Shown here piece after piece: positions 20,720 to 43,661 of a stretch of DNA of 64,000 bases. This DNA is from an uncultured Anaerolineales bacterium (lineage in GTDB: Bacteria > Planctomycetota > Phycisphaerae > FEN-1346). The notes beneath the pieces are model-generated. The model was not told where the DNA came from and did no database searches. It saw only the letters and a program-made list of their open reading frames with translations. Position numbers and translations under genes: made by a program. Location of the stretch: assembly GCA_964526295.1 (NCBI GenBank), contig CAZGKW010000012.1, forward strand, positions 30,643 through 94,642, written 5' to 3'. How positions within the stretch are numbered: position 1 is the stretch's first letter; each line of letters begins with the position of its first letter.

Positions 20720-21361
20720 CTACGGCTGCTGCTGGTCGGGGGCCGCCCTGGGCCCCTCCGGCGCGTAGCCCAGGCGGGCCAGTTGCTTTCGGGCCCAGCT
20801 CCGCCACCTCGCCCGTTCGTCCTCGTGAAGCACCTGCTCCAGGAGCAGGCAGACCTCGTCGGTCCGGTCGCCGCGGCGGACGAGCGTCCGGGCGAGGTTC
20901 GCCCGGTACTCGATCACGTCGGGGGCGAGTCCGACGGCTTCGCGATAGTAGGCGACCGCCTCGTCGAGCTCGCCGGCCTCCTCGTGGACGAGTCCCAGAT
21001 TGTTCCGGGGCCCGGCGTGCTTGGGCAGGAGCTGACGCGCGTCCTCGAACTCCCAGGCCGCCTTGTGGAAGTCGCCCTGCCGATAGTAGACCTTGCCCAG
21101 GTTGTTGTGGGCCGGTCCGAACTCGACGTCGGCGGTCAGGGCCCGGCGGAACGCCTCGGCGGCCCCCTCCAGGTCGTCCTGGGCGAGGTGCCGGAGGCCG
21201 GCGGCATTGGACTCGCGGGCGGCCTCGGTGTCCCGCCCCGGCTCCGGCCGGATCGTGGCGTAGACACGGGTCGGCGACTGGGCCTTCCACCCCGTCGCAC
21301 AGCCGCCGCCCGCGAGCACCGCGCCCGCCAGGAAGAGACACAACGCGATCTTGCCAGTCAT
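20720..21361 (-). CDS. TPR-repeat outer-membrane lipoprotein (PilF/PilW- or T2SS pilotin-like).
   Basis: Lipobox LAGAVLAGGGC. TPR repeats (..AAEAFRRAL..GPAHNNLGKVYYRQGDFHKAAWEFEDARQL..NNLGLVHEEAGELDEAVAYYREAV). It is the last gene of the minus-strand T2SS array. Confidence 0.6.
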   Translation of the reverse strand: MTGKIALCLFLAGAVLAGGGCATGWKAQSPTRVYATIRPEPGRDTEAARESNAAGLRHLAQDDLEGAAEAFRRALTADVEFGPAHNNLGKVYYRQGDFHKAAWEFEDARQLLPKHAGPRNNLGLVHEEAGELDEAVAYYREAVGLAPDVIEYRANLARTLVRRGDRTDEVCLLLEQVLHEDERARWRSWARKQLARLGYAPEGPRAAPDQQQP

Positions 21362-21371
21362 GGTCGGTCCT

Positions 21372-21905
21372 TCAGATATCGCGTGCCGCCGTCGCGGTCG
21401 GCACGTACATCAGGTAGGTCAGCGTGGCCTCGGCGTCCCAGACGTCGCGGGGGACGTCGCCGTGCGGGATACGAAGCCTGAGGTCGCGGACGCTCAGGCC
21501 CGATTCGGCCGTCAGGTGATGCAGGAACAGCGCCGCCTGGCGAAGCGTCACGCCCCGAATCGCGAGGACCGTGGGCTTCTGGACGTACGGCGTGTTCCCC
21601 AGGCGCCGGGGCGCCTGCGGCAGCACCCCCTCCAGGGCGTCCTTTCCGAGGCCGACCTGACGCGAGGCGGCCTCGATCCGCCGGCCCAGTTCCTGGACGC
21701 CCATGGCCTCGGCCGCGGCGACCGCCGGGGCGTCGCGGAGGGCCCTGATCTCGCCGGCCAGGACCTTGCAGTCGGCCAGGTCGCGGGCCGCCCCGAGGGC
21801 CGTCTCCCGCTGATCGAGCATCCACAGCACGTTCCATGCCGCGGCGATGACGAGCATCGCCAGCATCACGGCGATCAGGATCGCCTGTCTCGCGTGGGCG
21901 GTCAT
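21372..21905 (-). CDS. gspM: T2SS protein M-like (bitopic inner-membrane protein).
   Basis: 177 aa with an N-terminal TM (AILIAVMLAMLVIAAAW). It follows the GspL-like gene, and its start overlaps the GspL stop. Confidence 0.5.
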   Translation of the reverse strand: MTAHARQAILIAVMLAMLVIAAAWNVLWMLDQRETALGAARDLADCKVLAGEIRALRDAPAVAAAEAMGVQELGRRIEAASRQVGLGKDALEGVLPQAPRRLGNTPYVQKPTVLAIRGVTLRQAALFLHHLTAESGLSVRDLRLRIPHGDVPRDVWDAEATLTYLMYVPTATAARDI

Positions 21906-23284
21906 GGGGTACCCCCTTCGCCGGCTGAGGCGGGCCGCGGCCTGGCGGTGAAGAGGAAGCTGACACCCCCCTGCCGCAGGGCCTGGGTCTTCGGGGGCTG
22001 GACCTCGTACCGGCCGGACTGGCGTACGGCGATCGCGACGCCCTCCGCTTCCGCATGGCTGCGGGCCTGGCCGTCCAGACGGATGAAGTCCGGCTGGATG
22101 TTCAGATCCAGGATGCGGTACCGCACGTCGGTGGGGAGGCTGCCCAGCACCTGCCGCAGGTGCTCCAGCGCCGAGGTCGACGCCGCCGCTTCGCTGACGG
22201 ACGCGTCCGATTCGTGTCCGCCGATGCCCGCCAGCTTCCGTTTCTCGCTCAGGAGCCGCCCTCGGGCGCCGGCCCGGGGCACCGGCTGGCCCGGCAGGGC
22301 CTCCTTGCAGACGTCCGTCTGCTCCGCCAGGTACGCCTCGCGCAGCGCCTGGTACCGCCGCCCGCGCCACTGAGCGGCACCCGAGATCGAGACCAGCAGC
22401 AGCACCACGGCCGCCACGAGGGCCCCCAGGGGCCGGCGATACGTCCTCAGCGGGTCGGGGGCGGCCAGTGCGTCGCACCGCAGGTCGATCCACGGCGAGT
22501 CGTCGCCGGCGAGGACCTTCGCCGCATGAAGCGCCGCGGCCCGGTCGCCGCCCAACTCCCGCATCTCGACCCGCTGAAGGCCCTCCGGCACCAGTTCGGC
22601 GGGCCGCGTCGACCCGCCGTCGCCGAGAACGACGACGGGTCCCGGCCGGTCCTCGGACGTGGCCCAGACGGCCAGCCGCTCGCGGACGACCGCGCCGTCG
22701 TGGGCAAACCACCACCAGTCGGCCGGCCTGCCGCTTCGAAGCTCGACCAGGTCGTAGGCGGGGGGGGCGCCGTCCTGCCGGCGCCCCTCGCGTATCAGGA
22801 CCGCGCCGGCGTCCCTGGCATGGCGATCGACCACGTGGGCCGCCGCCAGGAAGGCCCGCGGGCAGACGTGCCTCACGCGGACGCCCGCCGCCTCGAAAGC
22901 GTCGACGACGGGCTCGAGGCGTTCGAGCTGGGCGCAGACGCCGAGGGCCCGGGCGCCGGCGGCGGGGAGGTAATCGGCGACGACCTCCTCAGCCGAGCAC
23001 GGCAGGTGCTCCTCCAAGCGGAACGCCATCCCCCGGCGGCGCGCGCCCCGCTCCAGGCCGTCCGTCGAGATCGCCGCGCACAGACACCACGACGAGGGGA
23101 CCACCAGGGCGATCGGCTGGTCGGCGTGCCCGAGACCCGTCAGCTCCTTCCGGGCCGCCTCGACGCGGCCCTCGGCGGTCGCGTCCGCCCCAAACGGGAC
23201 CTCGGCCAGGTGCACGTCGCCGTCGCGCACGGCCGCCGCGCGCCACGCCTCGTCGCCCAGAAAGACCAGGTAACGGTCGCTCAT
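21902..23284 (-). CDS. gspL: T2SS protein L-like. An N-terminal cytoplasmic actin-like domain, a single TM helix and a periplasmic C-terminal domain.
   Basis: 460 aa with a mid-protein TM (LGALVAAVVLLLVSISGAAQW). Position and architecture match GspL. The start overlaps the upstream stop. Confidence 0.55.
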   Translation of the reverse strand: MSDRYLVFLGDEAWRAAAVRDGDVHLAEVPFGADATAEGRVEAARKELTGLGHADQPIALVVPSSWCLCAAISTDGLERGARRRGMAFRLEEHLPCSAEEVVADYLPAAGARALGVCAQLERLEPVVDAFEAAGVRVRHVCPRAFLAAAHVVDRHARDAGAVLIREGRRQDGAPPAYDLVELRSGRPADWWWFAHDGAVVRERLAVWATSEDRPGPVVVLGDGGSTRPAELVPEGLQRVEMRELGGDRAAALHAAKVLAGDDSPWIDLRCDALAAPDPLRTYRRPLGALVAAVVLLLVSISGAAQWRGRRYQALREAYLAEQTDVCKEALPGQPVPRAGARGRLLSEKRKLAGIGGHESDASVSEAAASTSALEHLRQVLGSLPTDVRYRILDLNIQPDFIRLDGQARSHAEAEGVAIAVRQSGRYEVQPPKTQALRQGGVSFLFTARPRPASAGEGGTP

Positions 23285-23799
23285 GGCCGCGTCCCTCCCC
23301 CCGCAGCCGGTGCGAGGACCAGCTCGATCGTTTCGTCGGCGTACTCGACCGTGACCGTCTGCTGGTCGATCCGCTTGACGGTCACGGCCCCGCCCGCGTC
23401 GTCGACGCTTTGCCCCTCGGCACAGAGCGCGATCGTGCCGTCCTTCTTCTGAAACATCGCCATCGAGTGGCCGGGTTCGTCGACCGTGCCGATCAGGCGG
23501 ACGGTCATGGGGACCTTCGAGGCCCCGCCGGCGACGGGGGCGTCCTGGAGCGGCCGCCGAACGTCCAGTCCGGAGACCCGTTGAAGCTCGGCCAGCTTGG
23601 CCCGGGCCCGCTCGGCCTTCGCCTGCTCCGCGGCCGGGTCCCTGGCGGCGCCGCCGGCCCCCTCGGAGGACGGGACGTCCGGTTCGTCCGGGCCGGTCTC
23701 GAGCGGCACGGCCACCCCTGCCGCCAGCACCGCGACGGCCGCGAGCCCGACGGCCGCGGCGGCCAGTCCGATCGCCCGTTTCCGTTGACGCACGTTCAT
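23281..23799 (-). CDS. Small membrane-anchored periplasmic T2SS accessory protein (GspC/PilP-like position).
   Basis: 172 aa. N-terminal TM (IGLAAAAVGLAAVAVLAAGVAV), then an acidic/Pro-rich linker and a C-terminal beta-rich domain. Sits between the GspK-like and GspL-like genes. Confidence 0.4.
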   Translation of the reverse strand: MNVRQRKRAIGLAAAAVGLAAVAVLAAGVAVPLETGPDEPDVPSSEGAGGAARDPAAEQAKAERARAKLAELQRVSGLDVRRPLQDAPVAGGASKVPMTVRLIGTVDEPGHSMAMFQKKDGTIALCAEGQSVDDAGGAVTVKRIDQQTVTVEYADETIELVLAPAAGGGTRP

Positions 23800-23803
23800 A
23801 CCA

Positions 23804-24760
23804 TCACCAGGCGAACTCGTATCGGCGGTCGATATCGAGCAGGCGGCCGGATCGGCCCGCCTGGCCGCCCTTCTCGACGCCGCCCTCTCCCACGACCAGC
23901 GTGTGCCAGGACCGCTGCCGGCCCCGGACGATCACCCAGAGGCCGTGGCAGGACGACGCATCGGTCACGCACTCCTGGATCCGCAGTTTCTCGTCGCGAT
24001 CGGCCTTGTCGAGCTCCGCGACCATGGCCGGGAGACTGCGATAGGGGTCGCGGCTTCGCACCTCGAGCAGGGCGGCGACGAGGTCGCGGCCCAGCTCGCC
24101 GCGGCAGGCCAGCTCGACGACGGCGTCCGGGGCCCGCCGCAGGTTCACCTTGCCGTCGCCCCAGCAGGTGATCGCACGGACCAGCCCCGGTCGGCGTCCG
24201 TCGCCGGCCAGCCGCTCCGGCAGGACGCCTTCGAAGACCTGGCCGTAGCCGGCCACCTTCGACAGGTTGCCGGTCTGTCGGGAGAGGCCCTCCCCGAGCG
24301 CGAGGGTCCGAAGCGCCAGGCCGCCCTGCCGGACGAAGCCGCCGCCGGCCTCGGCGATGAGGTGGGCGACCTCGGAACGGGCCTCGCCGCGGCCCATCTC
24401 GTCGACCAGCACGTTCACGTTCAGCTTCGCCTGCTCGTCCGTCACGAGCAGCTCGTAGTCGAGGTCCGCGAGGCGGCAGGCGACACGGCGCTCGACCATC
24501 GGCGGGTTCAGATATCCCTGAGGGCCTGCGACGCCCTCGCCCCGCTCCGCCTCGTCGAGCAGCATCGCGGCCCGCGGCAGGAGCGCCTCGCGGCAGCTCG
24601 CCACGGCCCACCGCCGCTTCAGCTCCTCGACGGCGCCCCGTGCCTCCAGCGCCTCGACCATGCTCCGGCGGGCCATCCCCGCCAGCGAGATGGCCGCCAG
24701 GAGGACGAGCACCAGCACCAGCAGCAGGGCGAAGCCCGATTGTGCCGACCGGCGTCTCAT
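23804..24760 (-). CDS. gspK: T2SS minor pseudopilin K-like.
   Basis: N-terminus MRRRSAQSGFALLLVLVLVLLAAISLAGM resembles GspK leaders. ~318 aa. Follows the J-like gene, with a stop/start overlap. Confidence 0.55.
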   Translation of the reverse strand: MRRRSAQSGFALLLVLVLVLLAAISLAGMARRSMVEALEARGAVEELKRRWAVASCREALLPRAAMLLDEAERGEGVAGPQGYLNPPMVERRVACRLADLDYELLVTDEQAKLNVNVLVDEMGRGEARSEVAHLIAEAGGGFVRQGGLALRTLALGEGLSRQTGNLSKVAGYGQVFEGVLPERLAGDGRRPGLVRAITCWGDGKVNLRRAPDAVVELACRGELGRDLVAALLEVRSRDPYRSLPAMVAELDKADRDEKLRIQECVTDASSCHGLWVIVRGRQRSWHTLVVGEGGVEKGGQAGRSGRLLDIDRRYEFAW

Positions 24761-25752
24761 GTCCGTCCGCCCGATTCGATCATGACGATTCGCTCGCGGG
24801 TCGGCTGGGTCGCGTCGTCCGTCCAGAGGCGAAGCCGCCACACGGTGCCGACCGCCCGCCGACGGGGCGCCTGTTGCCCCTCGGCCGCCCCCCCGATGCC
24901 CCCCTGCCAACCCCCCTCGTCCCGTCCGGCGGGACGGGCCTCAGACGAGCCGGCCCTTCCCCGCCTGGAACCGGCCGGGCCGGCCTCCTCCGAAGTTTCC
25001 TCATCCCCGGAGCGGCCTTCGAGGACCCAGGGGACCAGCTCGATGAAGATCCAGTTGCCGCGGATGCGGACCTGCCCCTCCGGTCCGTCGGCCGGGAACT
25101 CGACGCCCTCTATGCCGGATTCCCTGGGGGGCGCCGAGGTCTTCGCTTCGGCCGGGCCGCGGTTGCCGGGGCCCGCTGCCGCTTCCGGCCCTGCTTCGCT
25201 TGCCGCCTCGGCCTCCTCTGCCTCGACTCCGCCCCCGGCGTCCGTCCCGCCGGTCGTCCCGATCGCGCCGGCGTTGAGCGTCCGTATCTCGCCGGTCCCG
25301 GCCATGCCGCCGAGGCCGATCAGCTCGAACCGCGTGACCCCACAGCAGACGAGGTCGCGCTGCACGTTCTGGTTCGTCAGGACGTCGAGGACGGCCTGGC
25401 GGCGGATGAGCCACGGCCGGCCGTCGATCCTCTCGATCTTGTAGAGCACGAGCACGGGCCGATGCGTCCGCTCGCGGGCCCGTCCATCCAGGGCCCCGTA
25501 GCCCATCAGCACCACCTCGTTGGCCTTGGAGGCGTCGATGCTGTGTGCGTGCGCGAGGTCCTCCCGGAGCAGGCCGACCCAGGCGTCGAGTGCCTCATCC
25601 CCGCCCGCAGCGCCGGCCTCCTCAGCGATGCCTGCCGCGACCTCGGGCGCCCCGAGGTCGGCCACCACCGCCAGGACGCCGATCATCAGGACGGTCGAGA
25701 GGGCCGTGGCCACGAGCAGCTCCAGCAGCGTGAATGCCCGCGCAGTGCTCAC
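24757..25752 (-). CDS. Minor pseudopilin (GspJ-like) with a prepilin-type N-terminus.
   Basis: The GTG start overlaps the upstream TGA (GTGA). Prepilin motif ARAFTLLELLVATALSTVLMIGVLAVV. Confidence 0.6.
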   Translation of the reverse strand: MSTARAFTLLELLVATALSTVLMIGVLAVVADLGAPEVAAGIAEEAGAAGGDEALDAWVGLLREDLAHAHSIDASKANEVVLMGYGALDGRARERTHRPVLVLYKIERIDGRPWLIRRQAVLDVLTNQNVQRDLVCCGVTRFELIGLGGMAGTGEIRTLNAGAIGTTGGTDAGGGVEAEEAEAASEAGPEAAAGPGNRGPAEAKTSAPPRESGIEGVEFPADGPEGQVRIRGNWIFIELVPWVLEGRSGDEETSEEAGPAGSRRGRAGSSEARPAGRDEGGWQGGIGGAAEGQQAPRRRAVGTVWRLRLWTDDATQPTRERIVMIESGGRT

Positions 25753-26201
25753 GGCGTCGCCTCCGGCACGGGGCCCGCTTCCGGGACGGGCCGCACCAGG
25801 TCGACGACCACGAGCGGCCCATCCGGGTCGGCCGACTGCGACGCCCCCATCGTCGACTCGTAGACCTCGACCCGCACGACGCGTGCCCCCAGCCGCTCGA
25901 CCGCCTCGTTCTCGACGAGGCGCGTCCGCCAGGTCAGCGATTCGCCGGTGCCGAGGGTGCCCGATTCGTCGACGGGCACGCCCTCTGGTTCGGCCCACCA
26001 CCCGGCAATCAGGTCGTCGGCCTCGCGGACGGCCATGTGCGTCCGCCGCGCCAGCGCAAGCTGGTGCGTGTGCCGCGCCTTCGCCAGGACGATCCCGACG
26101 AGGATCGCGCCGAGGATGGCGATGGCGGCGACGACCTCAATGAGCGTCAGGCCGCCCCGTCTCGAGCACCGCGAACAGGTTGTCGACTTCGTCGTCTTCA
26201 C
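25749..26201 (-). CDS. Minor pseudopilin (GspI-like).
   Basis: Prepilin motif RRGGLTLIEVVAAIAILGAILVGIVLA. The annotated start overlaps the upstream gene by 65 nt, so the true start is uncertain. Confidence 0.6.
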   Translation of the reverse strand: MKTTKSTTCSRCSRRGGLTLIEVVAAIAILGAILVGIVLAKARHTHQLALARRTHMAVREADDLIAGWWAEPEGVPVDESGTLGTGESLTWRTRLVENEAVERLGARVVRVEVYESTMGASQSADPDGPLVVVDLVRPVPEAGPVPEATP

Positions 26202-26733
26202 AATCGAGCACCATCTGGCCTGTCAGCCCCGCGAAGACCAGCCACCGGCCGTCGCCGCGGCCGGCCGGAGCGCCCCGGGGAGCCGTTCCGGAGCCGGACA
26301 CCAGGCGGAGGGCGTAGCTGGCGCTGCGTCCGGCCGTCGAGCAGGCGACGTCCACCACGCCGGATTCCTTCCCGCGGGCCGCCGGTCCCCCCGGCACCAG
26401 CGCCGAGGAAGCGGCCCGGGCGAAGACGACCCGGTCGATCCTGTGGCCGACCGGCAGGTCCAGGACGTGGCCCGGCATCTCGGTCCCGTCGTCATCGAAC
26501 ACGACCCGGCAGACGACCTGCCGGTCCAGGTCGAAGCGGAGGACGCAGGGCCGGCCCAGGCGTCGGGCGGCGATGCGGGCCCGCCGGTCGGCGTGGGCGA
26601 TCCGGCCCACGGCGTCCTCGCGGGACCACCGCTTCGCCTCGTCGGTCATCGACCAGACCACCGCACCGGCCAGGAGCCCCAGCAGCGCGACGACGGCCAT
26701 GACCTCGATCAGCGTGAAGCCGCCGCGTCGCAC
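26137..26733 (-). CDS. Pseudopilin (GspH-like).
   Basis: MRRGGFTLIEVMAVVALLGLLAGAVVW has the class III signal peptide signature. Confidence 0.65.
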   Translation of the reverse strand: MRRGGFTLIEVMAVVALLGLLAGAVVWSMTDEAKRWSREDAVGRIAHADRRARIAARRLGRPCVLRFDLDRQVVCRVVFDDDGTEMPGHVLDLPVGHRIDRVVFARAASSALVPGGPAARGKESGVVDVACSTAGRSASYALRLVSGSGTAPRGAPAGRGDGRWLVFAGLTGQMVLDCEDDEVDNLFAVLETGRPDAH

Positions 26734-26736
26734 GGG

Positions 26737-27180
26737 CTACTCCTCCACCTCTCGGGCATGTCCAAGTACGTCGGCGACCTGCCAGGAATAGACGTCGGCG
26801 TTCATCCCGTCGCCACCCTCGCGGCCGTCCGCCCCGAAGCTGATGACCTCGAAGGGGCCCTTCCGCCCGGGGCTGTTGTACTGGTAGGGGTTGCCCCAGG
26901 GGTCGAGGCGGGTCTTGATGGGGAGGTCGTCGAGGCCTTCCTCGTTGGTCGGATAGCGGCTGTGGGTCAGGTAGAACGTTTCGATGGCCCGCTCGATGGT
27001 GGCGATATCCGACTTCGTCCGGTTCACCTTGGCGGTGTCCATGTAGCCGGTGACCTTGAGGGCCACGGCGCCGGCCAGCAGGCCGATGATCACCACGACA
27101 ACCATCACCTCGATGAGCGAGAACGCGGCACGTCTCCGACCGCCTCCCATGGGGCGTCCAGGGCGTGACCGGCGGGCCAT
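26737..27180 (-). CDS. gspG: Major pseudopilin, type II secretion system protein G.
   Basis: RRRAAFSLIEVMVVVVIIGLLAGAV matches the GspG N-terminus. Conserved ..TKSDIATIERAIETFY..GRYP..L..L...L.DPWGNPYQY.. The start is chosen at the M with an AGCAGGA RBS; alternatives are 27201 and 27150. Confidence 0.85.
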   Translation of the reverse strand: MARRSRPGRPMGGGRRRAAFSLIEVMVVVVIIGLLAGAVALKVTGYMDTAKVNRTKSDIATIERAIETFYLTHSRYPTNEEGLDDLPIKTRLDPWGNPYQYNSPGRKGPFEVISFGADGREGGDGMNADVYSWQVADVLGHAREVEE

Positions 27181-27190
27181 GTCCTGCTTT

Positions 27191-28405
27191 TTAGAGCACA
27201 TCGGCAGCCTCCAGAATGGGAAGAATCGCGGCGAACGCGATGAACCCCACCGCGATCGCCAGGAGCACCGTCATGACCGGCTCCAGCAGGGCCGCGAGCC
27301 GGCCCGACGTGATATCCACCTGCGTATCGTAGTCGACGGCGAGGCCCTCGAGCATCGTCTCGAGCCGCCCCGACGCCTGGCCCACCGAGAAGACCTGGAT
27401 CACCAGCGGGGGGAACGCGCGGGTCTTCTCGAGGGCCACCGAGATGTCGCGCCCCGCACAGACGGCCTTTTCGCAGGCCACCAGGGCGTCGCGGAGCACC
27501 CGGTTGTGCACGGTTCGCTGGGCGATGCGGACCGCCCGGACGAACGTGACGTCGCTCTTCAGGAGCGTGGCCATGACCATCGCCATCCGGGCGATGGCCT
27601 GCTTGCGGATCAGCTCGCCGAAGAGCGGCACCTTCAACTCCAGCCGATGCCACGCCCGGCGCCCGCCCTCTGCCCGAAGGACGGCCCCGACCGTGACGAC
27701 CAGGGCCGCGGCCCCGAGCAGCAGGGCCCACCACCCGCCGAGGAGGAAATCGCTGACCGCCTTGACGACCATCGTCGGCATGGGCAGCGTCTTGCCGCTG
27801 TCGAGCAGGACGCCCAGCAGGTTCGGCACGACGTAGGTCATCAGGAAGATGCTGACGGCCAGGCCGACGGCCATCACGATGCCGGGGTACAGGAGGGCCG
27901 AGGCGACGCGGTTCTTCAGGCGGGCCGTCCGCATGCGGAACTGGACCAGCCGCCCGAGGGCCACGTCGAGCGTGCCGGCGTTCTCGCCCACCTCGACGAT
28001 GTTCAGGCACAGCTCGTCGAACAGGGCCGGCTCGAGGCCCATGGCCTCGGCCAGGCCCCCGCCCGCGGCGACGTGGTCGCGAAGCAGCAGGACCGATCGC
28101 TGAAAGCGTCCCTGGTGCTGGCGGAAAATCGTGTCGAGGGCCTCGAGCATGGGGATGTCGGCCGCCAGGAGCGTCGACAGCTCCTGGAGGAACCCCGTGA
28201 CCTTGGCCGTCTGCCGGCCCGTCAGGTAGCGGGCCCACCAGCCTTCGCGCCGGCCGGGCTGCTGCTCGGCGATGTCGCGGACCGAGAGGCCCTGGGCCCG
28301 CAACTGGTCGCGGGCCTGGCGGGGCGAGTCGGCGGCGATCGTGCCGCGCACCAGGCCCCCCCGGCCGTCTCCGTTCCCGCTCGCCGTGTAGACGTAAACC
28401 GCCAT
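27191..28405 (-). CDS. gspF: T2SS/T4P inner-membrane platform protein F.
   Basis: MAVYVYTASG.., two T2SSF repeats, and TM helices. The ATG overlaps the gspE stop (TGATG). Confidence 0.85.
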   Translation of the reverse strand: MAVYVYTASGNGDGRGGLVRGTIAADSPRQARDQLRAQGLSVRDIAEQQPGRREGWWARYLTGRQTAKVTGFLQELSTLLAADIPMLEALDTIFRQHQGRFQRSVLLLRDHVAAGGGLAEAMGLEPALFDELCLNIVEVGENAGTLDVALGRLVQFRMRTARLKNRVASALLYPGIVMAVGLAVSIFLMTYVVPNLLGVLLDSGKTLPMPTMVVKAVSDFLLGGWWALLLGAAALVVTVGAVLRAEGGRRAWHRLELKVPLFGELIRKQAIARMAMVMATLLKSDVTFVRAVRIAQRTVHNRVLRDALVACEKAVCAGRDISVALEKTRAFPPLVIQVFSVGQASGRLETMLEGLAVDYDTQVDITSGRLAALLEPVMTVLLAIAVGFIAFAAILPILEAADVL

Positions 28406-30093
28406 CAGAGAGTCGCCCTGATTGCGACGCGTATCACCTCGTCGAGGGTCGTGCGGCCCGCCGCCACCTTCGTCAGCCCGTCCTCGCGGAGGCTGTGCAT
28501 GCCGGCCCGCTGGGCGGCTTCGTTGATGGCCGCCGCGGTCGATTGGGCGTGGATGAGCCGGCGGACCTCGTCGTCGACCATCAGCAGCTCGAAGCACCCG
28601 AGCCGGCCGTGATAGCCCGTGCCCCGGCACGCCTCGCAGCCCGCCCCCTTGCGGAACCGCTGCCGCTGCTCGCGAGAAGGCTCGAAGCGGAGGGTCTCGA
28701 GCTCGGCGGCGTCCGGCACATCGGGCCGGGCGCACTCCGCGCAGACCCGCCGGACGAGCCGCTGGGCGAGCACCCCCACCAGCGAACTGCTCACCAGGTA
28801 GGGCTCGATCCCGAGGTCCAGGAGCCGCGTCACGGCGGAGGCGGCGTCGTTGGTGTGCAGCGTGCTGAAGACGAGGTGGCCGGTCAGGGCCGACTGGATG
28901 GCCAGGACGGCGGTCTCGTGGTCGCGGACCTCGCCGACCATGATGATGTCGGGGTCCTGCCGCAGGACGCTTCGAAGGCCGCTGGCGAACGTCATGCCCT
29001 TTTTCTCGGCGATCTGGATCTGGCTGATGCCCTCGAGCTGGTACTCGATGGGGTCTTCGAGCGTGATGACGTTCCTCTCGGCGGAGTTGATCTCGCCGAG
29101 GGCGGCGTAGAGGGTGGTGGTCTTGCCGGAGCCGGTGGGTCCGGTCACGAGGACCAGGCCGTGCTCGACGCCGATCAGGCGGGCGAACCGCGCCAGCGTC
29201 CGCTCGTCCATGCCCAGCTCGCCCAGGGTGTAGAGGCGGACGCTCTTGTCGAGCAGCCGGATGACGGCGCGCTCGCCGTGGCTCGCCGGGACCGTCGAGA
29301 CCCGCAGGTCGATGACCCGGTCGCCGACCTGGACGGTGGCCCGCCCGTCCTGGGGCAGCCGCTTCTCGGCGATGTTCATGCGGCACATGACCTTGACGCG
29401 GCTGACGACCTCCTCCTGGACGCCGACAGGCAGGTCGAACAGGTCGAACAGGACGCCGTCGATCCGCATCCGGACGACGAGTCGGTCCTCGTAGGGCTGG
29501 ATGTGGATGTCGGAGGCCTCCTGCTGGACGGCCTCGAACAGGATGAGGTTCACCAGCTTGATGACCGGGGCCCGGTCGGCCACGTTCAGGAGGTCCTCGC
29601 GTCCGCCCAGCTCGCTGACCTGCTCGATGACGGCGGCCCGGTCGAGGGCCTCGACGAACTCCCGGGCGGCCCCTTTCTGCTGGCCGTAGGCCTGGTTGAT
29701 GGCGGGCCCGAGCCACCCGGGGTCGGCGGCGACAACGTCGATGGCGGCCCCGAGCCATCGGCGGAGCACGTCCTGGGTCCGGGCGTCGTCCGGGTCGGCC
29801 ATGGCGATCCGCATCGGGCCGTCCTCGGTCGCCAGGCCCAGCACCTGCTTGGACCGGGCGAAGCCGATCGGCACGCGCTTGACGAACAGGGCCGAGGGAT
29901 GGGCCCCGGCGATGTCGACCGAGGGCCGGGGGGGCCGCGTCACGCCGTCCGGACGGCCATCCGCCTGCGGCCGGCCGGCGTCTTCGGGCGCCGGGAACGC
30001 GTCGGCGGCGCCGTCGGCCTCGGCGTCCGCCGTCGGGGGCGAGCGGACCGCGTGGGCGTCAACCTGCGGGTTGCGTTGGAAAGGCATAATCAT
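28405..30093 (-). CDS. gspE: T2SS ATPase GspE (GspE_N domain, AAA+ ATPase, C-terminal Zn-finger).
   Basis: Walker A GPTGSGKTTTLYAALGEIN. Carries the tetracysteine motif CAECARP..CEACRGTGYHGR. The N-terminal domain is GspE_N-like. Confidence 0.9.
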   Translation of the reverse strand: MIMPFQRNPQVDAHAVRSPPTADAEADGAADAFPAPEDAGRPQADGRPDGVTRPPRPSVDIAGAHPSALFVKRVPIGFARSKQVLGLATEDGPMRIAMADPDDARTQDVLRRWLGAAIDVVAADPGWLGPAINQAYGQQKGAAREFVEALDRAAVIEQVSELGGREDLLNVADRAPVIKLVNLILFEAVQQEASDIHIQPYEDRLVVRMRIDGVLFDLFDLPVGVQEEVVSRVKVMCRMNIAEKRLPQDGRATVQVGDRVIDLRVSTVPASHGERAVIRLLDKSVRLYTLGELGMDERTLARFARLIGVEHGLVLVTGPTGSGKTTTLYAALGEINSAERNVITLEDPIEYQLEGISQIQIAEKKGMTFASGLRSVLRQDPDIIMVGEVRDHETAVLAIQSALTGHLVFSTLHTNDAASAVTRLLDLGIEPYLVSSSLVGVLAQRLVRRVCAECARPDVPDAAELETLRFEPSREQRQRFRKGAGCEACRGTGYHGRLGCFELLMVDDEVRRLIHAQSTAAAINEAAQRAGMHSLREDGLTKVAAGRTTLDEVIRVAIRATL

Positions 30094-30229
30094 AACCAGA
30101 CCTCGAACTGATCTACCCCTTTTCTGGCCGTCCGCGTCGGCCGCGGCTGCCGCGGCGACGAGGCCGGTCCCGCGCCGCCGGGCGGCCGGCCTCGTCGGCG
30201 GGCCGACGGGGCGCGGGTCCCCGGGGCCC
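30094..30229 (-). promoter_or_regulatory. GC-rich inverted repeat in the 136-bp secretin–gspE spacer. It is a candidate intra-operon attenuator, RNA-processing site or internal promoter region.
   Basis: CGACGAGGCCGG..(18 nt)..CCGGCCTCGTCG is a 12-bp perfect stem. This is the only gap larger than 100 bp inside the minus-strand array. Confidence 0.3.
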
Positions 30230-32445
30230 CTACGGGACCTCGACGGGCTCGCTGTCGGGCCAATCGCTCGGCAGCTTCGCGCGTCCGGCGGCCGTGTCCG
30301 AGACCACCTTCAGGTCCTCGAACTTGTCGGCCCGGAGGACCACCGCCCGGATGAACACGAACAGCGTGGTCTCTCGTGTCTGCTTGGAGCGGCTGGAGAA
30401 CAGGTATTCGAGGATGGGGATATTGCCCAGGATGGGGAGCCGGTCGACCGACTCCAGAATGTCCTCCCTCGTCAGGCCGCCCACGACAATCGTGTGGCCG
30501 TCGGGAACCGTCGCCTCGCTGGTCAGCTTGTTCGTCTGGCGCGACGGCGGCAAGGTCTCCGAGACGTCCTCGCCGAAGCTGCTCAGCTCGATCTCGTATT
30601 CAAGCTTCAGGTGATCGCCTTCGCTGATCTGCGGCCGGACGCGAATGGTGGTGCCGGCCGAGACGAAGCCGCCCAGGCTGGTCGTGGCCACGGTGGTGGA
30701 GGCGTTGACGCTGGCGAAGGGCTCCTCGCCCTCGCTGGTCAGCTCGCCTTGGGCGTTGTCGTTGATCAGGACGCTGGGGCGGGCCACGACCTTGGCCCGG
30801 CTGTCGCTTTCGAGGGCCCGGATCACGACGTTGGCGATGTCGGCGCTCAGGAGGGCCCCGTTGAAGCCCAGGCCCGGCCGGAGGGTCAGCATGCCCGTCT
30901 CGGTGTCGACCTCGCTCAGGCCGAACGAGCTGAACGTCAGGACCGTCCCGTCGTCGTCGCCGACGTTCTCGGTGTTCGAGATCTCCACGCCGACCGAGTA
31001 CCCGTCGGTCGTATCGAGCAGCACGACGGTGGCCTCGACGAGGACCTGCGGCCGCCGCACGTCCAGCCGGCTGATCAGCCGCTCGTAGACGCGGTGGAGC
31101 GAAGGCTTCGCGACGACGATGATCGTGTTGGTGGCCTCGTCGGCCATGACGCGTGTGTTCTGGAGGCCGAGGGCGCCTTCGACGACGCCCGGCGAGGCGG
31201 CGCGGCCCTCGCCGGGGCCGGCGAGCGGGTTCGGCCGGGTCTCCATCGCCGGCCGGACCGGCAGGGGATAGGCCACGTCCTGCGGCTCGGCCGTTACCCC
31301 GTCGACGCTCACGCCCGTCAGGCCCGTCTCCCCTTCGATGCTTCGGAGGGTCTCCAGCACGTCGATGGCCTTGGCGTTCTGGAGCTTGTAGAACCGGATG
31401 GGGCTCTGGGAATCCTCCGGCGGCTGGTCGAGCGCCCCCCTGAGGGCCTCGACCTGCTCGTGGACCTCCGGGCCGGCGGTGACGATCAGCAGGTTCGCAT
31501 CGGCGTCGATGGCCGACTTGTACATCCGTTGGGCGGCCACCTCGCCGATCAGCTCACGGACCAGCCGGTCGACCTGTCCGGGCGAGGCCACGCTGAATCG
31601 ATAGATCTCCGTCTTGAAGCCGAGGGGCACGTCGAGCGACTCGATCATGGCGACCGCTTCGGCCACGGCGTCGGGCAGGCCGATGACCACGACCCGGTTC
31701 GTCCGCTCGTCCGCCAGGACGGTCAGGGCCGGCAGGGCCTTGTCGACGGCGCGTCCGGTGGCCTTGGCCCGGGCCTCGATCATCTCGGTCACTTTCTCGG
31801 CCATGGCCTCGGCTTCGAGCTGGCCGACCGGGACGAAGCGGGTGGCCGCCTCGCGGGCCGGGCGGTCCACGACCGCCACGAGGTCCTCGATCCGACCCAT
31901 GTTCGCCGCGTAGTCGGTCACGATAATGAGGCCGTGCTCCTCGACCTTCGTCAGGTCGGCCGAGGGGGCCGACAGGAACGGCCGGACCACCTGGTCGGCC
32001 CGCTGGGGGCTGGTGTGGCGGAGCTCGAAGACGCTTGTCACCGCCAGGCCGGGGGGGGCCCCGGCGGGGGGCCCCGGGCCGGCCGCAATCGAGGTGAGCT
32101 TCTGGGCCCCCTCGATCCGCATCATGCCCGGCACATCGGTCGGGGACATCACGAGGCCCTTCATCCGGAGGATGCTTCCGAGCAGCGTCAGCAGCGAGTC
32201 GGCCGGCACCTTCAGGGGGGCCTTCAGGGTGACGCGTTTGCCGGCGACCTGCTCGTCGTAGAGGAAGTTGATGCCCTGGCGATGGCCGACGTACTCGATG
32301 AGGACCTTGAGCTCCAGGTCCTCGGGGAAGTTGATGCTGACCCAGCCGGCCGGGGCGTTTGTCGGCCCGGCCGCACGGGTCCCGGACGCTGCCAGGCCGA
32401 CGACGGCGACCCAGGCCGCCATCCACACTCGATTCCGCGGATTCA
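30230..32445 (-). CDS. gspD: Outer-membrane secretin (GspD/PilQ family).
   Basis: Signal peptide MNPRNRVWMAAWVAVVGLAASG, N0-like domain, and a C-terminal secretin domain (VPDGHTIVVGGLTREDILESVDRLPILGNIPILEYLFSSRSKQTRETTLFVFIRAVVL). Confidence 0.9.
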
Positions 32446-32492
32446 TGACCACCCCTCGACGTTCGTGAAAAGGGGCCGCTCGGCCCCGGTCC

Positions 32493-34085
32493 CTAGCGAG
32501 TCCTCTGGGCGACGCGCTCGACCTTCTCCATGTATTCCTGAACGGCCTCGCGTGGCCGGACCTGCTGGGCCCGGCGAAGCAGGGGCAGGGCCTGGGCGTA
32601 CTTGCCCTCCCGGACGAGCAACTGGGCGTGGCGAAGCAGGGCATCCGCCTCAAACTCCTCGATGGCGGCGGCCTGCTGGAAGTAGAAGATCGCCTGGTCG
32701 GGGTCGCCGGTGTCGGCGTGGTACTGGCCGAGGCTGATGAGGGCCTCGCCGTCCAGGGGGTCGAGCTCGATGATCTCCTTCAGGGTCCGGGCGTGCTCCT
32801 CGCTCTTGTCCTCGACCAGGGCCACCCGGGCCTCCAGCTTGAGGAGTTCCTTGCGGGCCTCCTCGCTCAGGCGGTCGCCGTGGGTCCGCTGGATGCTCTC
32901 GACGAGCTGTCGCGTCTGTTCGGTGGCGCCGCGGGAGGCCAGCACCTTGGCGCCGCGGACGGCCCGGTCGGGCTTGTCCGCGGGCTTCTTCTCCATGGCG
33001 CGGATGTAGGACCGGACGGCGAGGTCGAAGAGGTCCTCATTGATGTAGATATCCCCCATCATATTGAGGGCGGCGGCATCGGCCTTGCCGAGACTGTCGG
33101 CGAACTCGTAGTTCTGGACGGCCTTGAGGGGCTCGTCGAGGCCGATGTAGGCGTTGGCCTGGAGCAGCCAGAGGTCGGCGTTGTCGGGGTAGTGCTCGAT
33201 GAGCTGGCCGCACAGGGCGGCGGCCTCGGCGAAACGGCGCTGCTGGAAGAAGCTCTGGGCCAGGCCCATCTTCCAGTCGAGCGTGGCCGGGTCGAGCAGG
33301 ACCGCCATGCGGTAGGCGGACTCGGCCGACAGGGGGTTGCCCACCGAGGCGTAGGCGTAGCCGAGCAGGCCGTACATGATGGCATCGCCGCCGCCCAGCT
33401 CGATGACCTTGGTCAGGGCGGGCAGGGCCTTCTCGAACTCGTTCAGGCGGACGTAGGCGACGCCGAGGTTCCGGTAGGCGCGGCGGAACTTGACGCCCGC
33501 CTTCGCGGCCTTCTCGATGGCCTCCTGGTAGATCGAGGCGGCCCGGTCGAGCCGGTCCCGCTCGAAGTAGATGTTGGCCAGCGTGAAGTCGATCACGGCG
33601 CTGGCCGCCTCGTTGCGGTTCCTCTGGAGCAGGCGGGTGGCCTCATCGCGGTTGTCGGCCCCCATCAGGTCGAGCACCTCCCGCATCAACGCCTGCTCTT
33701 CGGTCGTCAGCTTCGGCTCGACGTCGGTGTCGGCGGCATAGCTCTGGACGAAGTCCACCCGGAACGCCGGGTCGTTCCAGATCTGGAGCTCGACCTGCTC
33801 TCTGCCGGGCATCGGCACCGACGCGCCGGCGAACCGCATCTCGCGTTGCCGGTCGGCCTTCGAAGGGCCGGTCGGCCGCTGGCCGAGCTCTCGCTGCCCG
33901 AGCCCGGTGCAGCCGGCCAGCGTCCCGGCGGCCAGCGCCAGGGCCGCCGCCACCCGCCACGCAAGGACGAACCCGGACGGGGCGAGGGCCTCGCCGCCTC
34001 GACGGCCGCGGGCCGCCGGCGCGGGCCTCTCCGTCAGCGGGCCCTGGCGACCGGGCATTCTCGATATCCGCTCTGGCATGGTCAT
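32493..34085 (-). CDS. Large periplasmic TPR-repeat protein (TtpD-like partner of TonB2-type systems).
   Basis: The ATG overlaps the tonB stop (ATGA). About 10 TPR units (..AYRNLGVAYVRLNEFEKALPALTKVIEL..). Signal/TM FVLAWRVAAALALAAGTLAGCTG. Confidence 0.6.
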   Translation of the reverse strand: MTMPERISRMPGRQGPLTERPAPAARGRRGGEALAPSGFVLAWRVAAALALAAGTLAGCTGLGQRELGQRPTGPSKADRQREMRFAGASVPMPGREQVELQIWNDPAFRVDFVQSYAADTDVEPKLTTEEQALMREVLDLMGADNRDEATRLLQRNRNEAASAVIDFTLANIYFERDRLDRAASIYQEAIEKAAKAGVKFRRAYRNLGVAYVRLNEFEKALPALTKVIELGGGDAIMYGLLGYAYASVGNPLSAESAYRMAVLLDPATLDWKMGLAQSFFQQRRFAEAAALCGQLIEHYPDNADLWLLQANAYIGLDEPLKAVQNYEFADSLGKADAAALNMMGDIYINEDLFDLAVRSYIRAMEKKPADKPDRAVRGAKVLASRGATEQTRQLVESIQRTHGDRLSEEARKELLKLEARVALVEDKSEEHARTLKEIIELDPLDGEALISLGQYHADTGDPDQAIFYFQQAAAIEEFEADALLRHAQLLVREGKYAQALPLLRRAQQVRPREAVQEYMEKVERVAQRTR

Positions 34086-34768
34086 GACCGTTTCGGGAAG
34101 GTGATGGGGACCCGCATGCGTGTCTTGACGGGTTTGCCGCCCCGCTTGCCGGGCTCGAATTTCCATTGCTGCACGGCGCCCAGGGCCGGCTTCTCGAAGG
34201 CCGGGTGGCTCGACGTCTGGACGATCGGGTCCTCCACGCGGCCTCGTTCGTTGACGATGAAGATGACGACCACCTTGCCGGAAGTCTCGTTCAGCATCTT
34301 CCTCACCTGGCTGTTGAGGGTGGGCTGAGGCTGGTAGAGGACGCGGGGCTTCTGGTCGAGGTCGGCCAGGGAGAACAGCTCGTTGAGGTCGCCGGCCCCG
34401 GGGCCCACAGCGAACAGCTTGACGGCGAGCTCGGCGGCACCCAGGTTGCCCTCGCCGAACGCCGTGGGGTTCAGGACCAGCTCGAGCTGCTCGAGCGTCA
34501 GCGGCTGCGTCTTCTCCTCGAACTCCGGCGGCTGCTCCTGCGGCTCGGGCTCCTCCTCGGGCTCCTCTTCGGGAGGCGGCGGGGGCGAGGGCACCTCGCC
34601 GGTGTAAACGTCCCGGACGACCAGGTCGGATTCGGGCGGCCGGCTGATGGTCTGCATGAGCGGCAGCACGAGAAAGAACGCGAGCGTCAGTCCCGCAGCG
34701 CCCAGAAAGACCCACAGGCGGTGCAGGAGCCACCGCAAGACCGACGTTCGTTGTCTCGGTCTGGCCAT
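34082..34768 (-). CDS. tonB: TonB energy transducer.
   Basis: N-terminal TM (LWVFLGAAGLTLAFFLVLPL) and a Pro/Glu-rich spacer (PPPPPEEEPEEEPEPQEQPPEFEE). C-terminal TonB_C (..VVVIFIVNERGRVEDPIVQTSSHPAFEKPALGAVQQWKFEPGKRGGKPV). Confidence 0.85.
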   Translation of the reverse strand: MARPRQRTSVLRWLLHRLWVFLGAAGLTLAFFLVLPLMQTISRPPESDLVVRDVYTGEVPSPPPPPEEEPEEEPEPQEQPPEFEEKTQPLTLEQLELVLNPTAFGEGNLGAAELAVKLFAVGPGAGDLNELFSLADLDQKPRVLYQPQPTLNSQVRKMLNETSGKVVVIFIVNERGRVEDPIVQTSSHPAFEKPALGAVQQWKFEPGKRGGKPVKTRMRVPITFPKRS

Positions 34769-34778
34769 GGGCCGACGC

Positions 34779-35195
34779 TCAACTTTCCGTTCGCCGCGTG
34801 GCGACGCTGACCTTCGTCGCCCCGCCCAGCTTGGCCTGGTCGATGACGCGGACCAGGAGGCCGGACTGGACGGCCGGATCGGCCTGTACGATGACCGGCA
34901 TGTCGCGGTTGGCGAGCGTGTTCTCGACGAGCAACCGGACGCCGCCGATGGGGACTCGTCTGCCCTCGCAAAGCACCTCGCCCTGCTGAGTCATTTCGAT
35001 CAGGATGCTGGTTTTCTCGTCGCTTCGGGACGCACCCCCGGGCTGCGGCTTGTCGACCTGCACGCCGGACTCGTCCACGAACGCCGTCGTCACGATGAAG
35101 AAGATCAGGAGGATGAAGACGCAGTCCATGAGGGGAGAGATATCGACCGCGCCCTCGGTGCCCTCTTCGTCGGCGGTTTCTCGAAAACGTCTCAC
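34779..35195 (-). CDS. exbD: ExbD/TolR biopolymer transport protein.
   Basis: AVDISPLMDCVFILLIFFIVTTAFV is the ExbD signature. Confidence 0.85.
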   Translation of the reverse strand: MRRFRETADEEGTEGAVDISPLMDCVFILLIFFIVTTAFVDESGVQVDKPQPGGASRSDEKTSILIEMTQQGEVLCEGRRVPIGGVRLLVENTLANRDMPVIVQADPAVQSGLLVRVIDQAKLGGATKVSVATRRTES

Positions 35196-35216
35196 GTCGT
35201 CTCCTCGCGTCAGGCT

Positions 35217-35630
35217 TCAGCCCTGACCTGGCCGCGTCGCGATGCTGACTTTCGTGGCCTCGGCCAGCTTGGCCTCCTCGAGCACCCGGACCAGCACGCC
35301 GGAATGGGCGGCGGCGTCGGCCTGGATGATCACGGGGACCTGCTCCTTCCGGATGAGCCGCTTCACGAGCGGCTGGACCCCGCTGACGCCGATCTCGCGT
35401 CCCGCGTAGACCACCTCGCCCTTGGCGGTGACCGCGATGAGAATGCTGTTCTTCTCGAGGCGGACGCCGGACGCGGCCTGGGGCCGGTCGACCTCCACCC
35501 CGGTCTCCTCCACGAACGTCGTCGTCACGATGAAGAAGATCAGGAGGATGAAGACGCAGTCGAGCAAGGGAGAGATGTCGATCCCGCCCTCGCTGCTCTC
35601 ATCCATCGCCGCTTCGCGGAAGCGTCCCAT
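35217..35630 (-). CDS. exbD: ExbD/TolR paralog.
   Basis: GIDISPLLDCVFILLIFFIVTTTFV, a tandem duplicate of the downstream exbD. Confidence 0.85.
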   Translation of the reverse strand: MGRFREAAMDESSEGGIDISPLLDCVFILLIFFIVTTTFVEETGVEVDRPQAASGVRLEKNSILIAVTAKGEVVYAGREIGVSGVQPLVKRLIRKEQVPVIIQADAAAHSGVLVRVLEEAKLAEATKVSIATRPGQG

Positions 35631-35656
35631 GGGACTCCCCGTCGGTCACCTCGTTC

Positions 35657-35986
35657 TCAGGGGGCCGGCCGCTTTCCCGGCCCCTCGGCGCCTCGTCTCG
35701 CCCCTCCGGAGCGGATGGGCGGCCCCCAGCCATCACCGCCCGTGAGGGTATTGAACAGGGCATCGAGGTCGTCAAAGTCCAGGGGCCCGGTCTCGACCGG
35801 CCCAGGCGGGCGCCGCCGGCCCGGGTCGATGGTGCGCACCTCGAAGTCCGGCCCGGGCGGCTTCACGAGGGCCTTGGTCAGCAGCGGCGCGAGGAGGAAC
35901 AAGGCCGTCAGGCCCATCGCCCCCGCCACGACCGAGACGTTGTGCAGAAGCCGCCTTCTCGATGGACCCGCCTGGTGCGGTCCCAT
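35657..35986 (-). CDS. Small single-TM, Pro/Gly-rich protein inserted between exbB and exbD (unknown function).
   Basis: GGAGG RBS 6 nt upstream of the ATG. TM VSVVAGAMGLTALFLLAPLL. About 109 aa. Nested inside a longer GC-artifact ORF. Confidence 0.4.
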   Translation of the reverse strand: MGPHQAGPSRRRLLHNVSVVAGAMGLTALFLLAPLLTKALVKPPGPDFEVRTIDPGRRRPPGPVETGPLDFDDLDALFNTLTGGDGWGPPIRSGGARRGAEGPGKRPAP

Positions 35987-36036
35987 GGTTCGACCTCCAG
36001 GTCTTGCCGCCTCGGGCGGCCGCACGCGCCTCCGAT

Positions 36037-36675: not shown

Positions 36676-36760
36676 GTCGGTTATGCCTTTCCGGCCCCGC
36701 CCTTCGGGGCCGCGCCTCATCCGGTCAGCGGCGGCCGCGACACCGCCGGTCTCCGGTCGC

Positions 36761-38317: not shown

Positions 38318-38335
38318 GCCGGCCTCCCGCGCCGG

Positions 38336-39193: not shown

Positions 39194-39241
39194 CCGGCCC
39201 CTTTCGCCCCTCTCGGTTCGTCTTCTTCCGGCAGCCGTCGG

Positions 39242-43596: not shown

Positions 43597-43618
43597 CGTG
43601 TCTGGTTCTCCCCCGGTA

Positions 43619-43661
43619 GAAAGTCTGATGGCAGGACGACACGTCCTGCCATCAGACTTTC
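43619..43661 (-). promoter_or_regulatory. Perfect 20-bp stem / 3-nt loop hairpin in the leader of the lipoprotein–TBDR unit. Candidate terminator or attenuator, or an RNA stability element.
   Basis: GAAAGTCTGATGGCAGGACG-ACA-CGTCCTGCCATCAGACTTTC. No U-tract on either strand. Confidence 0.5.

Follow-up and report, generated by a model that had tools for sequence, protein, structure and literature searches.

A block of twelve minus-strand genes, running from 32446 to 20720 in the 64,000-nt stretch of DNA analysed here (the window), probably encodes a complete type II secretion system (T2SS) that is typical of its lineage, with a minimal GspC and a TPR lipoprotein among its components. The planctomycete origin proposed earlier from the letters alone holds, the class being Phycisphaerae. 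The gene order is gspD-E-F-G-H-I-J-K-X-L-M-TPR lipoprotein, in which X is a gene of 172 aa (Table 1). An earlier account of the same DNA, made from the sequence without database searches (the sequence-only reading), had interpreted this set as a hybrid between a T2SS and a type IV pilus (T4P). As the odd gene proves to be a reduced GspC and the TPR lipoprotein is linked to the system in most loci, the block is better described as a lineage-typical variant than as a secretion/pilus hybrid.

Table 1. Genes of the T2SS block in transcriptional order; a slash marks the cleavage site in leaders and lipobox
Gene product	Length (aa)	Coordinates	Strand	Characteristics
GspD secretin	738	30230..32446	-	signal peptide without lipobox; N0, Secretin_N repeats, secretin domain
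GspE secretion ATPase	562	28405..30093	-	TIGR02533; Pfam T2SSE and MshEN
GspF inner-membrane platform protein	404	27191..28405	-	Pfam T2SSF twice; 3 TM segments (hydropathy)
GspG major pseudopilin	154	26737..27201	-	leader RRRAA/FSLIEV; Pfam T2SSG and N_methyl
GspH-like minor pseudopilin	198	26137..26733	-	leader MRRGG/FTLIEV; N_methyl 27.8 bits
GspI-like minor pseudopilin	150	25749..26201	-	leader RRGG/LTLIEV; N_methyl
GspJ-like minor pseudopilin	331	24757..25752	-	leader TARA/FTLLEL; N_methyl 21.7 bits, sole family match
GspK-like minor pseudopilin	318	23804..24760	-	SG/FALLLVL, without Glu5
Mini-GspC (gene X)	172	23281..23799	-	TM ~7-30 (hydropathy), helix 55-76, HR beta-domain 101-161; no PDZ or coiled-coil second periplasmic domain
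GspL	460	21902..23284	-	cytoplasmic domain, TM at ~residue 282 (hydropathy), periplasmic domain
Divergent GspM	177	21372..21905	-	N-terminal TM segment; start overlaps gspL stop by 4 nt
T2SS-linked TPR lipoprotein	213	20720..21361	-	lipobox LAGGG/C21; ~3-4 TPRs; 10 nt after gspM

All twelve open reading frames placed by the sequence-only reading are present on the minus strand, and their GC3 values of 0.86–0.95 are of the coding type. The secretin gene was correctly located, with its upper coordinate one base off (given as 32445 for 32446). Translational coupling had been claimed for the set as a whole. From gspE to the TPR gene the junctions are tight, with overlaps or gaps of at most 10 nt (E/F −1, F/G −11, G/H +3, H/I −65, I/J −4, J/K −4, K/X +4, X/L −4, L/M −4 and M/TPR +10), and the gspF start codon shares 1 nt with the gspE stop codon. 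Since these junctions are overlapping or near zero, coupling can be accepted from gspE onwards, but not between gspD and gspE, which are 136 nt apart and uncoupled. A scan for promoters and terminators across 20.3–34.3 kb revealed nothing exceeding shuffled expectation.

On profile scores, the core of the block is assigned to a T2SS and not to a T4P. GspE reached 641 bits against TIGR02533 type_II_gspE, above the cut-off of 630.25, versus 531 bits against PilB, which is under the cut-off of that model. The best NCBIfam model for GspF was TIGR02120 GspF (317 bits, cut-off 424) versus 256 bits for PilC, and for GspD it was TIGR02517 GspD (315 bits, cut-off 351) versus 147 bits for PilQ; in Pfam, the secretin matched type_II_gspD_N0, Secretin_N (1.7e-36) and Secretin (2.1e-35). 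The best scores of D, F, H, I, K and L came from Gsp models, while GspE and GspG passed the NCBIfam cut-offs for T2SS. GspL matched TIGR01709 gspL at E 3.6e-14 (52.7 bits, cut-off 65) over model positions 16–374 of 392, in addition to a weak match to Pfam GspL_C. The M-like protein of the window had no HMM match of its own in Pfam or NCBIfam, and a profile search of the PDB gave no matches either. However, 17 of its 38 aligned orthologues match Pfam PF04612 T2SSM (best E 1.8e-9) and one JGI orthologue carries the name PulM, and the gene is assigned to a divergent GspM on this homology. The topologies of GspL and GspM fit those of assembly-platform proteins. In the assembled machine GspD forms the outer-membrane secretin, with GspE, F, L and M as assembly platform and motor at the inner membrane.

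GspG and the minor pseudopilins H, I, J and K would form the pseudopilus. The leaders of G, H, I and J are as first described (AA/FSLIEV, GG/FTLIEV, GG/LTLIEV and RA/FTLLEL). GspG scored 115 bits against TIGR01710 gspG, exceeding the cut-off of 88.85, whereas H, I and K had their best matches to Gsp models at sub-cut-off scores and J matched N_methyl only. For the GspH-like protein the best NCBIfam model was TIGR01708 GspH (E 5e-8), with coverage limited to the N-terminal third, and the slot of its gene after gspG is kept in four related loci (L003, L006, L007 and L008). The GspI-like protein covered 97 of 101 positions of TIGR01707 gspI (E 8.4e-6), and residues 7–129 of the GspK-like protein matched NF037980 T2SS_GspK (E 9e-13). 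A profile search of the PDB with the GspJ-like protein gave no matches. This protein carries an insert rich in Ala, Gly and Glu (about 150 aa), its aligned orthologues being about 200 aa long, and the GspJ label is a positional one, given from the slot between I and K and from these shorter orthologues.

As had been remarked, the block is without a prepilin peptidase. There was no Peptidase_A24 domain (Pfam) in the ~57 called genes of the window, and an approximate P. aeruginosa PilD query found nothing at E ≤ 10 in the six-frame ORFs of the window and 83 loci (547 kb), a weak negative. Such an absence from 64 kb is ordinary for T2SS clusters. A peptidase encoded away from the T2SS cluster is normal (PMC11981180), and TXSScan models gspO as a 'loner' that is exchangeable with pilD (PMC6668835). 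The gene for the peptidase that cleaves the five pseudopilin leaders would lie in another part of the genome, an arrangement shared by many bacteria with a T2SS.

The 172-aa gene between gspK and gspL had been taken for an unusual accessory gene in a block lacking GspC. Homology and fold show that it is itself a GspC homologue in minimal form, composed of a membrane anchor and an HR domain; GspC is thus truncated, not missing. The observation that the block holds no PDZ-containing GspC was borne out, in that Pfam detected no PDZ domain in this protein or in the ~57 called genes of the window. The AF2 model places the single N-terminal TM helix at residues 3–29, the HR domain by which a GspC is recognised was found, and the protein ends about 11 residues past the last HR strand. 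Members of the family are about 160–190 aa long, and in public sources the protein is called 'hypothetical' or has no name. Its best sequence model is NF041515 GspC_delta (25.6 bits, cut-off 150; model positions 15–158), and the same model is matched by 59 of the 64 family members, while the curated GspC cut-offs (NF041515 or TIGR01713) are not reached. With NF041515, a deltaproteobacterial model of 311 positions, the TM segment and HR region align, but only with its N-terminal half, and the protein falls short of membership under the curated threshold. A profile of the 64 sequences, built from an exhaustive search, recovered LspC, OutC and GspC from the PDB; a narrower profile of 15 sequences gave noise only.

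PilP structures were also among the top fold matches, and one family member weakly matched the pilP_fam model. The layout of an anchor plus an HR-like domain is likewise the minimal one of PilP, and PilW is the top NCBIfam match of the TPR lipoprotein, with Tgl also listed. These likenesses would agree with a mosaic in which a T2SS core has recruited from T4P a connector resembling PilP and a pilotin of the PilF/PilW type. We find this most improbable, given that D, E and F score higher as T2SS than as T4P proteins, that GspG passes its cut-off and that both GspL and GspK are present. For the 172-aa protein, the sequence models favour GspC and not PilP (Pfam PilP 13 bits, cut-off 25.6). In type IVa pili, PilP is a lipoprotein and its gene belongs to pilMNOPQ, whereas the mini-GspC has a TM helix, no lipobox Cys in its N-terminus, a place in a gsp operon and matches to GspC models. 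GspB-like scaffolds, too, have a TM anchor and an HR-like domain that contacts the secretin. The 172-aa protein could accordingly be a scaffold of this kind, aiding secretin assembly in a T2SS without GspC or with one encoded elsewhere; this seems improbable, and neither a T2SSB family match nor a GspA partner was found for it.

As a GspC, the 172-aa protein lacks the variable second periplasmic domain (PDZ or helix), whether by loss or from the outset. The HR domain of characterised systems attaches to the secretin N0 domain and so links platform to pore. With no second GspC domain, substrate recruitment must, we infer, use other parts, for example the N domains of the secretin, the tip of the pseudopilus or possibly the TPR protein.

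Compared with the canonical proteobacterial T2SS (Gsp/Pul/Eps/Out), the block has the same D–M core set, a GspC with an HR domain and the order E-F-G-H-I-J-K...L-M. It differs in having gspC between K and L and not before D, in the absence of the PDZ domain, in a cluster without GspO, GspS, GspA/B and GspN but with a TPR lipoprotein in the operon, and in that most components are too divergent for curated cut-offs. The resemblance to the Xps system of Xanthomonas and the Xcp system of Pseudomonas lies in a non-PDZ GspC (XpsC/XcpP-type) that does not head the operon, a peptidase outside the cluster and the lack of a GspS pilotin (PMC11981180). The Xps order is E-F-G-H-I-J-K-L-M-C-D (PMC11981180), and unlike the block described here Xps has no operon-encoded TPR lipoprotein. 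Furthermore, XpsC and XcpP retain a single-helix second periplasmic region, whereas the mini-GspC stops soon after its HR domain.

The TPR lipoprotein at the end of the operon belongs to this T2SS subtype, being conserved and co-transcribed. It matched TPR_2, TPR_16 and TPR_1 in Pfam, Cys21 does not vary and orthologues are 49–60% identical. Among 58 orthologous loci from metagenomes, most have the TPR gene linked to gspM/L or gspD. Directly upstream of it lies gspM or gspL in 28 of 36 loci, and gspD follows directly downstream in 8 of 27, giving a permuted operon (...M-TPR-D-E). The sequence-only reading had called the terminal gene a TPR lipoprotein not of the GspS type, which agrees with the lipobox and repeats found and with the lack of any match to PulS/OutS or AspS models at E ≤ 0.1 in Pfam and NCBIfam. 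GspS (PulS/OutS) and AspS are lipoproteins as well and may share a secretin-targeting role with it, but they are not TPR proteins. The resemblance to PilF/PilW that had also been seen is one of architecture only. PilW was the top NCBIfam match at 48.5 bits (cut-off 154), with MamA, GltE and PrsT also matched, and a second PilF/PilW/Tgl model gave 41.7 bits (cut-off 225), Tgl being among the matches; these cut-offs are from TIGR02521 and NF033762. Profile matches in the PDB were generic (consensus TPR and OGT), and the single-sequence AF2 model had a pLDDT of 43.8.

From its gene linkage, the lipoprotein is a plausible candidate for a role in secretin assembly. It may help to assemble or target the secretin in the manner of PilF/PilW/Tgl and TadD, a proposal to which we give slightly less than even chances. 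As with PilF/PilW/Tgl of T4aP and TadD of Tad systems, the gene for a small TPR lipoprotein here accompanies those of a secretin-based type IV filament machine. Unlike PilF/PilW/Tgl, it occurs in a T2SS context and scores far under their cut-off, and it has about 3–4 repeats, compared with six in PilF/PilW. It is rather unlikely, in our judgement, that the protein is no pilotin at all and instead a substrate-recruiting periplasmic adaptor, an envelope tether or an unrelated passenger of the operon. TPRs are general protein-binding modules, and the few repeats present have no specific likeness to known pilotins. In addition, the gene is at the opposite end of the operon from gspD in the window, and 4 of 36 orthologous loci are without nearby T2SS genes. 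The TPR lipoprotein also co-occurs across loci with a GspC without second domain, which would fit a compensatory role. However, the lipoprotein signal has Ala at +2, which by E. coli sorting rules would direct the protein to the outer membrane, where secretins assemble. The permuted loci place the TPR gene directly upstream of gspD, and in the related T4aP and Tad machines the known pilotins belong to the TPR lipoproteins (PMC10499894). The strong conservation of the lipoprotein speaks against the passenger version in particular.

Planctomycetota play a major part in breaking down complex polysaccharides and have to send many large enzymes out of the cell. A literature search for a planctomycete or Phycisphaerae T2SS found nothing specific. 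The T2SS described here is complete and conserved, and its GspC is an HR-only protein of about 170 aa. With so divergent a GspC the system could be missed or called 'generic' by finders in which gspC is mandatory (PMC6668835), and current annotation pipelines leave the GspC, J, M and TPR components of the subtype nameless. The minimal GspC may be regarded as a natural experiment on the purpose of the variable PDZ or helix domain, and the consistently linked TPR lipoprotein offers a concrete candidate for the pilotin that is missing from a non-proteobacterial T2SS. We tentatively suggest that the lipoprotein might represent a third kind of T2SS pilotin or assembly factor, hitherto undescribed, of the TPR type and working together with a mini-GspC without second domain in a subtype widespread in Planctomycetota, or that it might take over the substrate docking of the missing GspC domain; this is possible, if somewhat short of probable. 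The general picture of T2SS function is unchanged, while its range of variation is widened.

A second TPR protein, of 530 aa, is encoded upstream of gspD and was considered as a part of the T2SS. It was rejected because its gene is translationally coupled to tonB and the same 10-gene TonB module ends with a homologue in genomes where no T2SS follows; the homologues are sometimes TonB_C fusions. It shares about 55–62% identity with homologues in Planctomycetota, Omnitrophota and Verrucomicrobiota.

The twelve minus-strand genes running from gspD to the terminal TPR lipoprotein encode a complete, lineage-typical T2SS from a bacterium of the Phycisphaerae, with a predicted HR-only GspC between gspK and gspL, a TPR lipoprotein in the operon and the prepilin peptidase probably encoded elsewhere. 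Since the G+C content is about 70% across the window, raw ORF lists were crowded with spurious frames, and the twelve consecutive genes were obtained after filtering on codon-position G+C (GC3 of 0.86–0.95 and GC1 above GC2). The sequence-only reading had described this block correctly overall, save that the secretin start was one base off and that the junction of gspD and gspE, spaced by 136 nt, is uncoupled. Its observations were thus confirmed, including four quoted pseudopilin leaders that match the sequence exactly, while its interpretation held in part only.

Features of the window and their coordinates
Feature	Position	Strand	Remark
T2SS cluster, twelve genes	32446 to 20720	minus
Junctions E to J		minus	E/F -1, F/G -11, G/H +3, H/I -65, I/J -4 nt
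Junctions J to TPR		minus	J/K -4, K/172-aa gene +4, 172-aa gene/L -4, L/M -4, M/TPR +10 nt
GspG cleavage site	27100..27201	minus	RRRAA↓F
GspJ-like pseudopilin	24757..25752	minus
J-like cleavage site	25700..25752	minus	TARA↓F
172-aa protein	23281..23799	minus	between gspK and gspL
TPR lipoprotein	20720..21361	minus	final gene
TonB-type module, ten genes	32493..45614	minus	conserved; ends 46 nt upstream of gspD
PEP-CTERM protein	45673..46320		adjoins TonB module
Low-G+C stretch	50000..52400
ORF in low-G+C stretch	50446..51561
Cytidylyltransferase-like gene	59682..60326		close to parB/parA
parB and parA pair	60692..62447
Acylphosphatase gene	62947..63225		close to parB/parA

A hybrid of T2SS and T4P had been proposed for this cluster, and the core proteins speak against it. 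GspE scored 641 bits with TIGR02533, above the curated T2SS threshold of 630, and a lower 531 bits with the PilB model, under the cut-off of that model; GspG likewise exceeded its threshold (TIGR01710, 115 bits versus 88.85). For GspD and GspF, which carry the expected Pfam domains, the best models were those of T2SS (315 bits versus 147 for PilQ, and 317 versus 256 for PilC, respectively). For each of the H-, I-, K- and L-like proteins the best family was the corresponding Gsp model, with every score under the cut-off, and the J-like protein was assigned by its N-terminal methylation motif and its place between I and K, nothing further. The M-like protein had no match of its own in sequence models; Pfam T2SSM recognises 17 of its 38 aligned orthologues, with E 1.8e-9 for the best of them. 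Hydropathy gave the expected topologies, with three TM segments in GspF, one in GspL at about residue 282 and an anchor at the N-terminus of both GspM and GspC. The cluster has no component peculiar to T4P, such as PilT, PilM/N/O or a secretin with an AMIN domain, and is a T2SS and no hybrid.

The 172-aa protein had been read as an accessory gene in a block devoid of a PDZ-containing GspC. The PDZ domain is indeed absent, but the gene appears to encode a truncated GspC. The protein matches the deltaproteobacterial GspC model of NCBIfam weakly (E 9e-6, positions 15–158 of 311) in an alignment that takes in the TM segment as well as the HR region. A word-indexed search returned 15 close relatives only, one of them from a Phycisphaerae MAG, and at E<=1e-3 an exhaustive profile search gave 1,042 representatives of clusters, nearly all 160–190 aa long among the 150 matches listed. 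Among 64 diverse members, 59 match GspC_delta and 11 match TIGR01713 GspC, and their joint profile found Legionella LspC (8e-5), OutC/PulC (9e-4) and GspC-HR 2lnv (1.4e-3) in the PDB. The AlphaFold model has a TM helix (3–29), a helix (55–76) and a seven-strand beta-domain (101–161, pLDDT >90), and its top seven Foldseek matches are all PilP or GspC-HR structures. Because the chain ends about 11 residues past the HR domain, there is neither a PDZ nor a helical second periplasmic domain; anchor and HR are those of a GspC, and the score lies below the curated cut-off. Model matches, predicted fold and chain end together mark the protein as a minimal GspC. The second domain of GspC is known to vary between a PDZ and a single helix, and the gene need not head its operon (PMC11981180); in Xanthomonas Xps gspC likewise lies away from the operon head. 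Having no second domain at all seems to extend this known range by one step.

The terminal gene does encode a TPR lipoprotein and no GspS-type pilotin, as the sequence-only reading stated, and neither GspS nor AspS models matched it; the suggested resemblance to PilF/PilW proved to be one of architecture only. PilW was the top NCBIfam match at 48.5 bits versus a cut-off of 154, beside MamA, GltE, PrsT and Tgl, and the PDB matches were consensus TPR proteins and OGT; by these models the likeness is to generic TPR only. The lipobox LAGGG↓C21 is invariant among orthologues, which are 49–60% identical, a conservation exceeding that of GspC or GspM. A metagenome scan seeded by the orthologue alignment gave 71 loci, analysed with local HMMs and phmmer, and 58 of these have a clear orthologue. 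Of the 36 orthologue loci with at least 700 nt of upstream sequence, 28 have gspM or gspL immediately before the TPR gene in the same orientation, and among the eight others gspD or gspE is a neighbour in four. T2SS genes occur in 29 of 34 loci flanked by 1.5 kb or more, and gspD follows directly in 8 of 27 with downstream room, these having the permuted operon F-G-H-I-J-K-C-L-M-TPR-D-E. By this linkage the TPR lipoprotein is a genuine, conserved member of the T2SS subtype. PilF/PilW/Tgl and TadD are also TPR lipoproteins (PMC10499894). By analogy with these, the most economical guess, drawn from association only, is that the protein may act in secretin assembly or targeting, to which we give slightly less than an even chance; the main alternative is a substrate adaptor that would make up for the absent GspC domain. 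The T2SS form described is an aid to annotation and supplies a testable pilotin candidate, and holds no surprise for the field. This circularly permuted order, in which the TPR gene immediately precedes gspD, is common among relatives (metagenome loci L031, L033, L054, L065 and others).

The order D-E-F-G-H-I-J-K-C-L-M-TPR lipoprotein recurs in full in three more places: L003, from a Phycisphaerae MAG and on the same contig as locus L005; L006 (CAZNYC010000030.1), from a MAG labelled uncultured Anaerolineales; and the much more distant L008, with a GspC about 33% identical and neighbours carrying planctomycete-type PSCyt/PSD1 domains. In L007, a Phycisphaeraceae contig, D to L are visible before the contig ends. 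The L006 operon nearly equals that of L003, both in gene order and in how closely its products resemble the window proteins, and L006 is probably mis-binned or mislabelled.

The block was correctly said to hold no prepilin peptidase: Peptidase_A24 is absent from every called gene of the 64-kb window, and an unverified PilD probe matched nothing across the window and 83 related loci. This absence is unremarkable, since gspO sits outside the T2SS cluster in Xanthomonas (PMC11981180) and is treated by the TXSScan T2SS model as a loner exchangeable with pilD (PMC6668835). Position -1 of the cleavage site is Ala, replacing the near-universal Gly, in GspG and the J-like pseudopilin, and Gly in the L006 GspG orthologue; the Ala may hint at the specificity of the peptidase presumed to be encoded elsewhere. 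About 150 aa of the GspJ-like pseudopilin form a low-complexity insert rich in Ala, Gly and Glu, partial in L003 and missing in the orthologues of about 200 aa in L007 and L008.

The TonB-type module upstream of gspD encodes, in order, a beta-helix protein, a TPR protein, a TonB-dependent receptor with CarboxypepD_reg, DUF3450, a long MotA/ExbB, ExbB, two ExbD (one in the Omnitrophota contig L012), TonB and a 530-aa TPR lipoprotein. The last was rejected as a T2SS part, as its gene is translationally coupled to tonB and terminates a module that no T2SS follows in Planctomycetales bacterium ZRK34 (L011). The module is also present in L012, where the sequence stops right after the TPR gene. Its homologues in Planctomycetota, Omnitrophota and Verrucomicrobiota are about 55–62% identical, some being fused to a TonB C-terminal domain, and adjacency to gspD is kept in L003, L006 and L008. 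Next to the module lies a gene for a small protein that bears the PEP-CTERM sorting motif.

Elsewhere, tRNA genes were found nowhere in the window. One stretch has a local G+C of 0.62 versus about 0.70 and may be foreign DNA; its ORF has no Pfam match. The parB/parA neighbourhood may lie near the chromosomal origin region.
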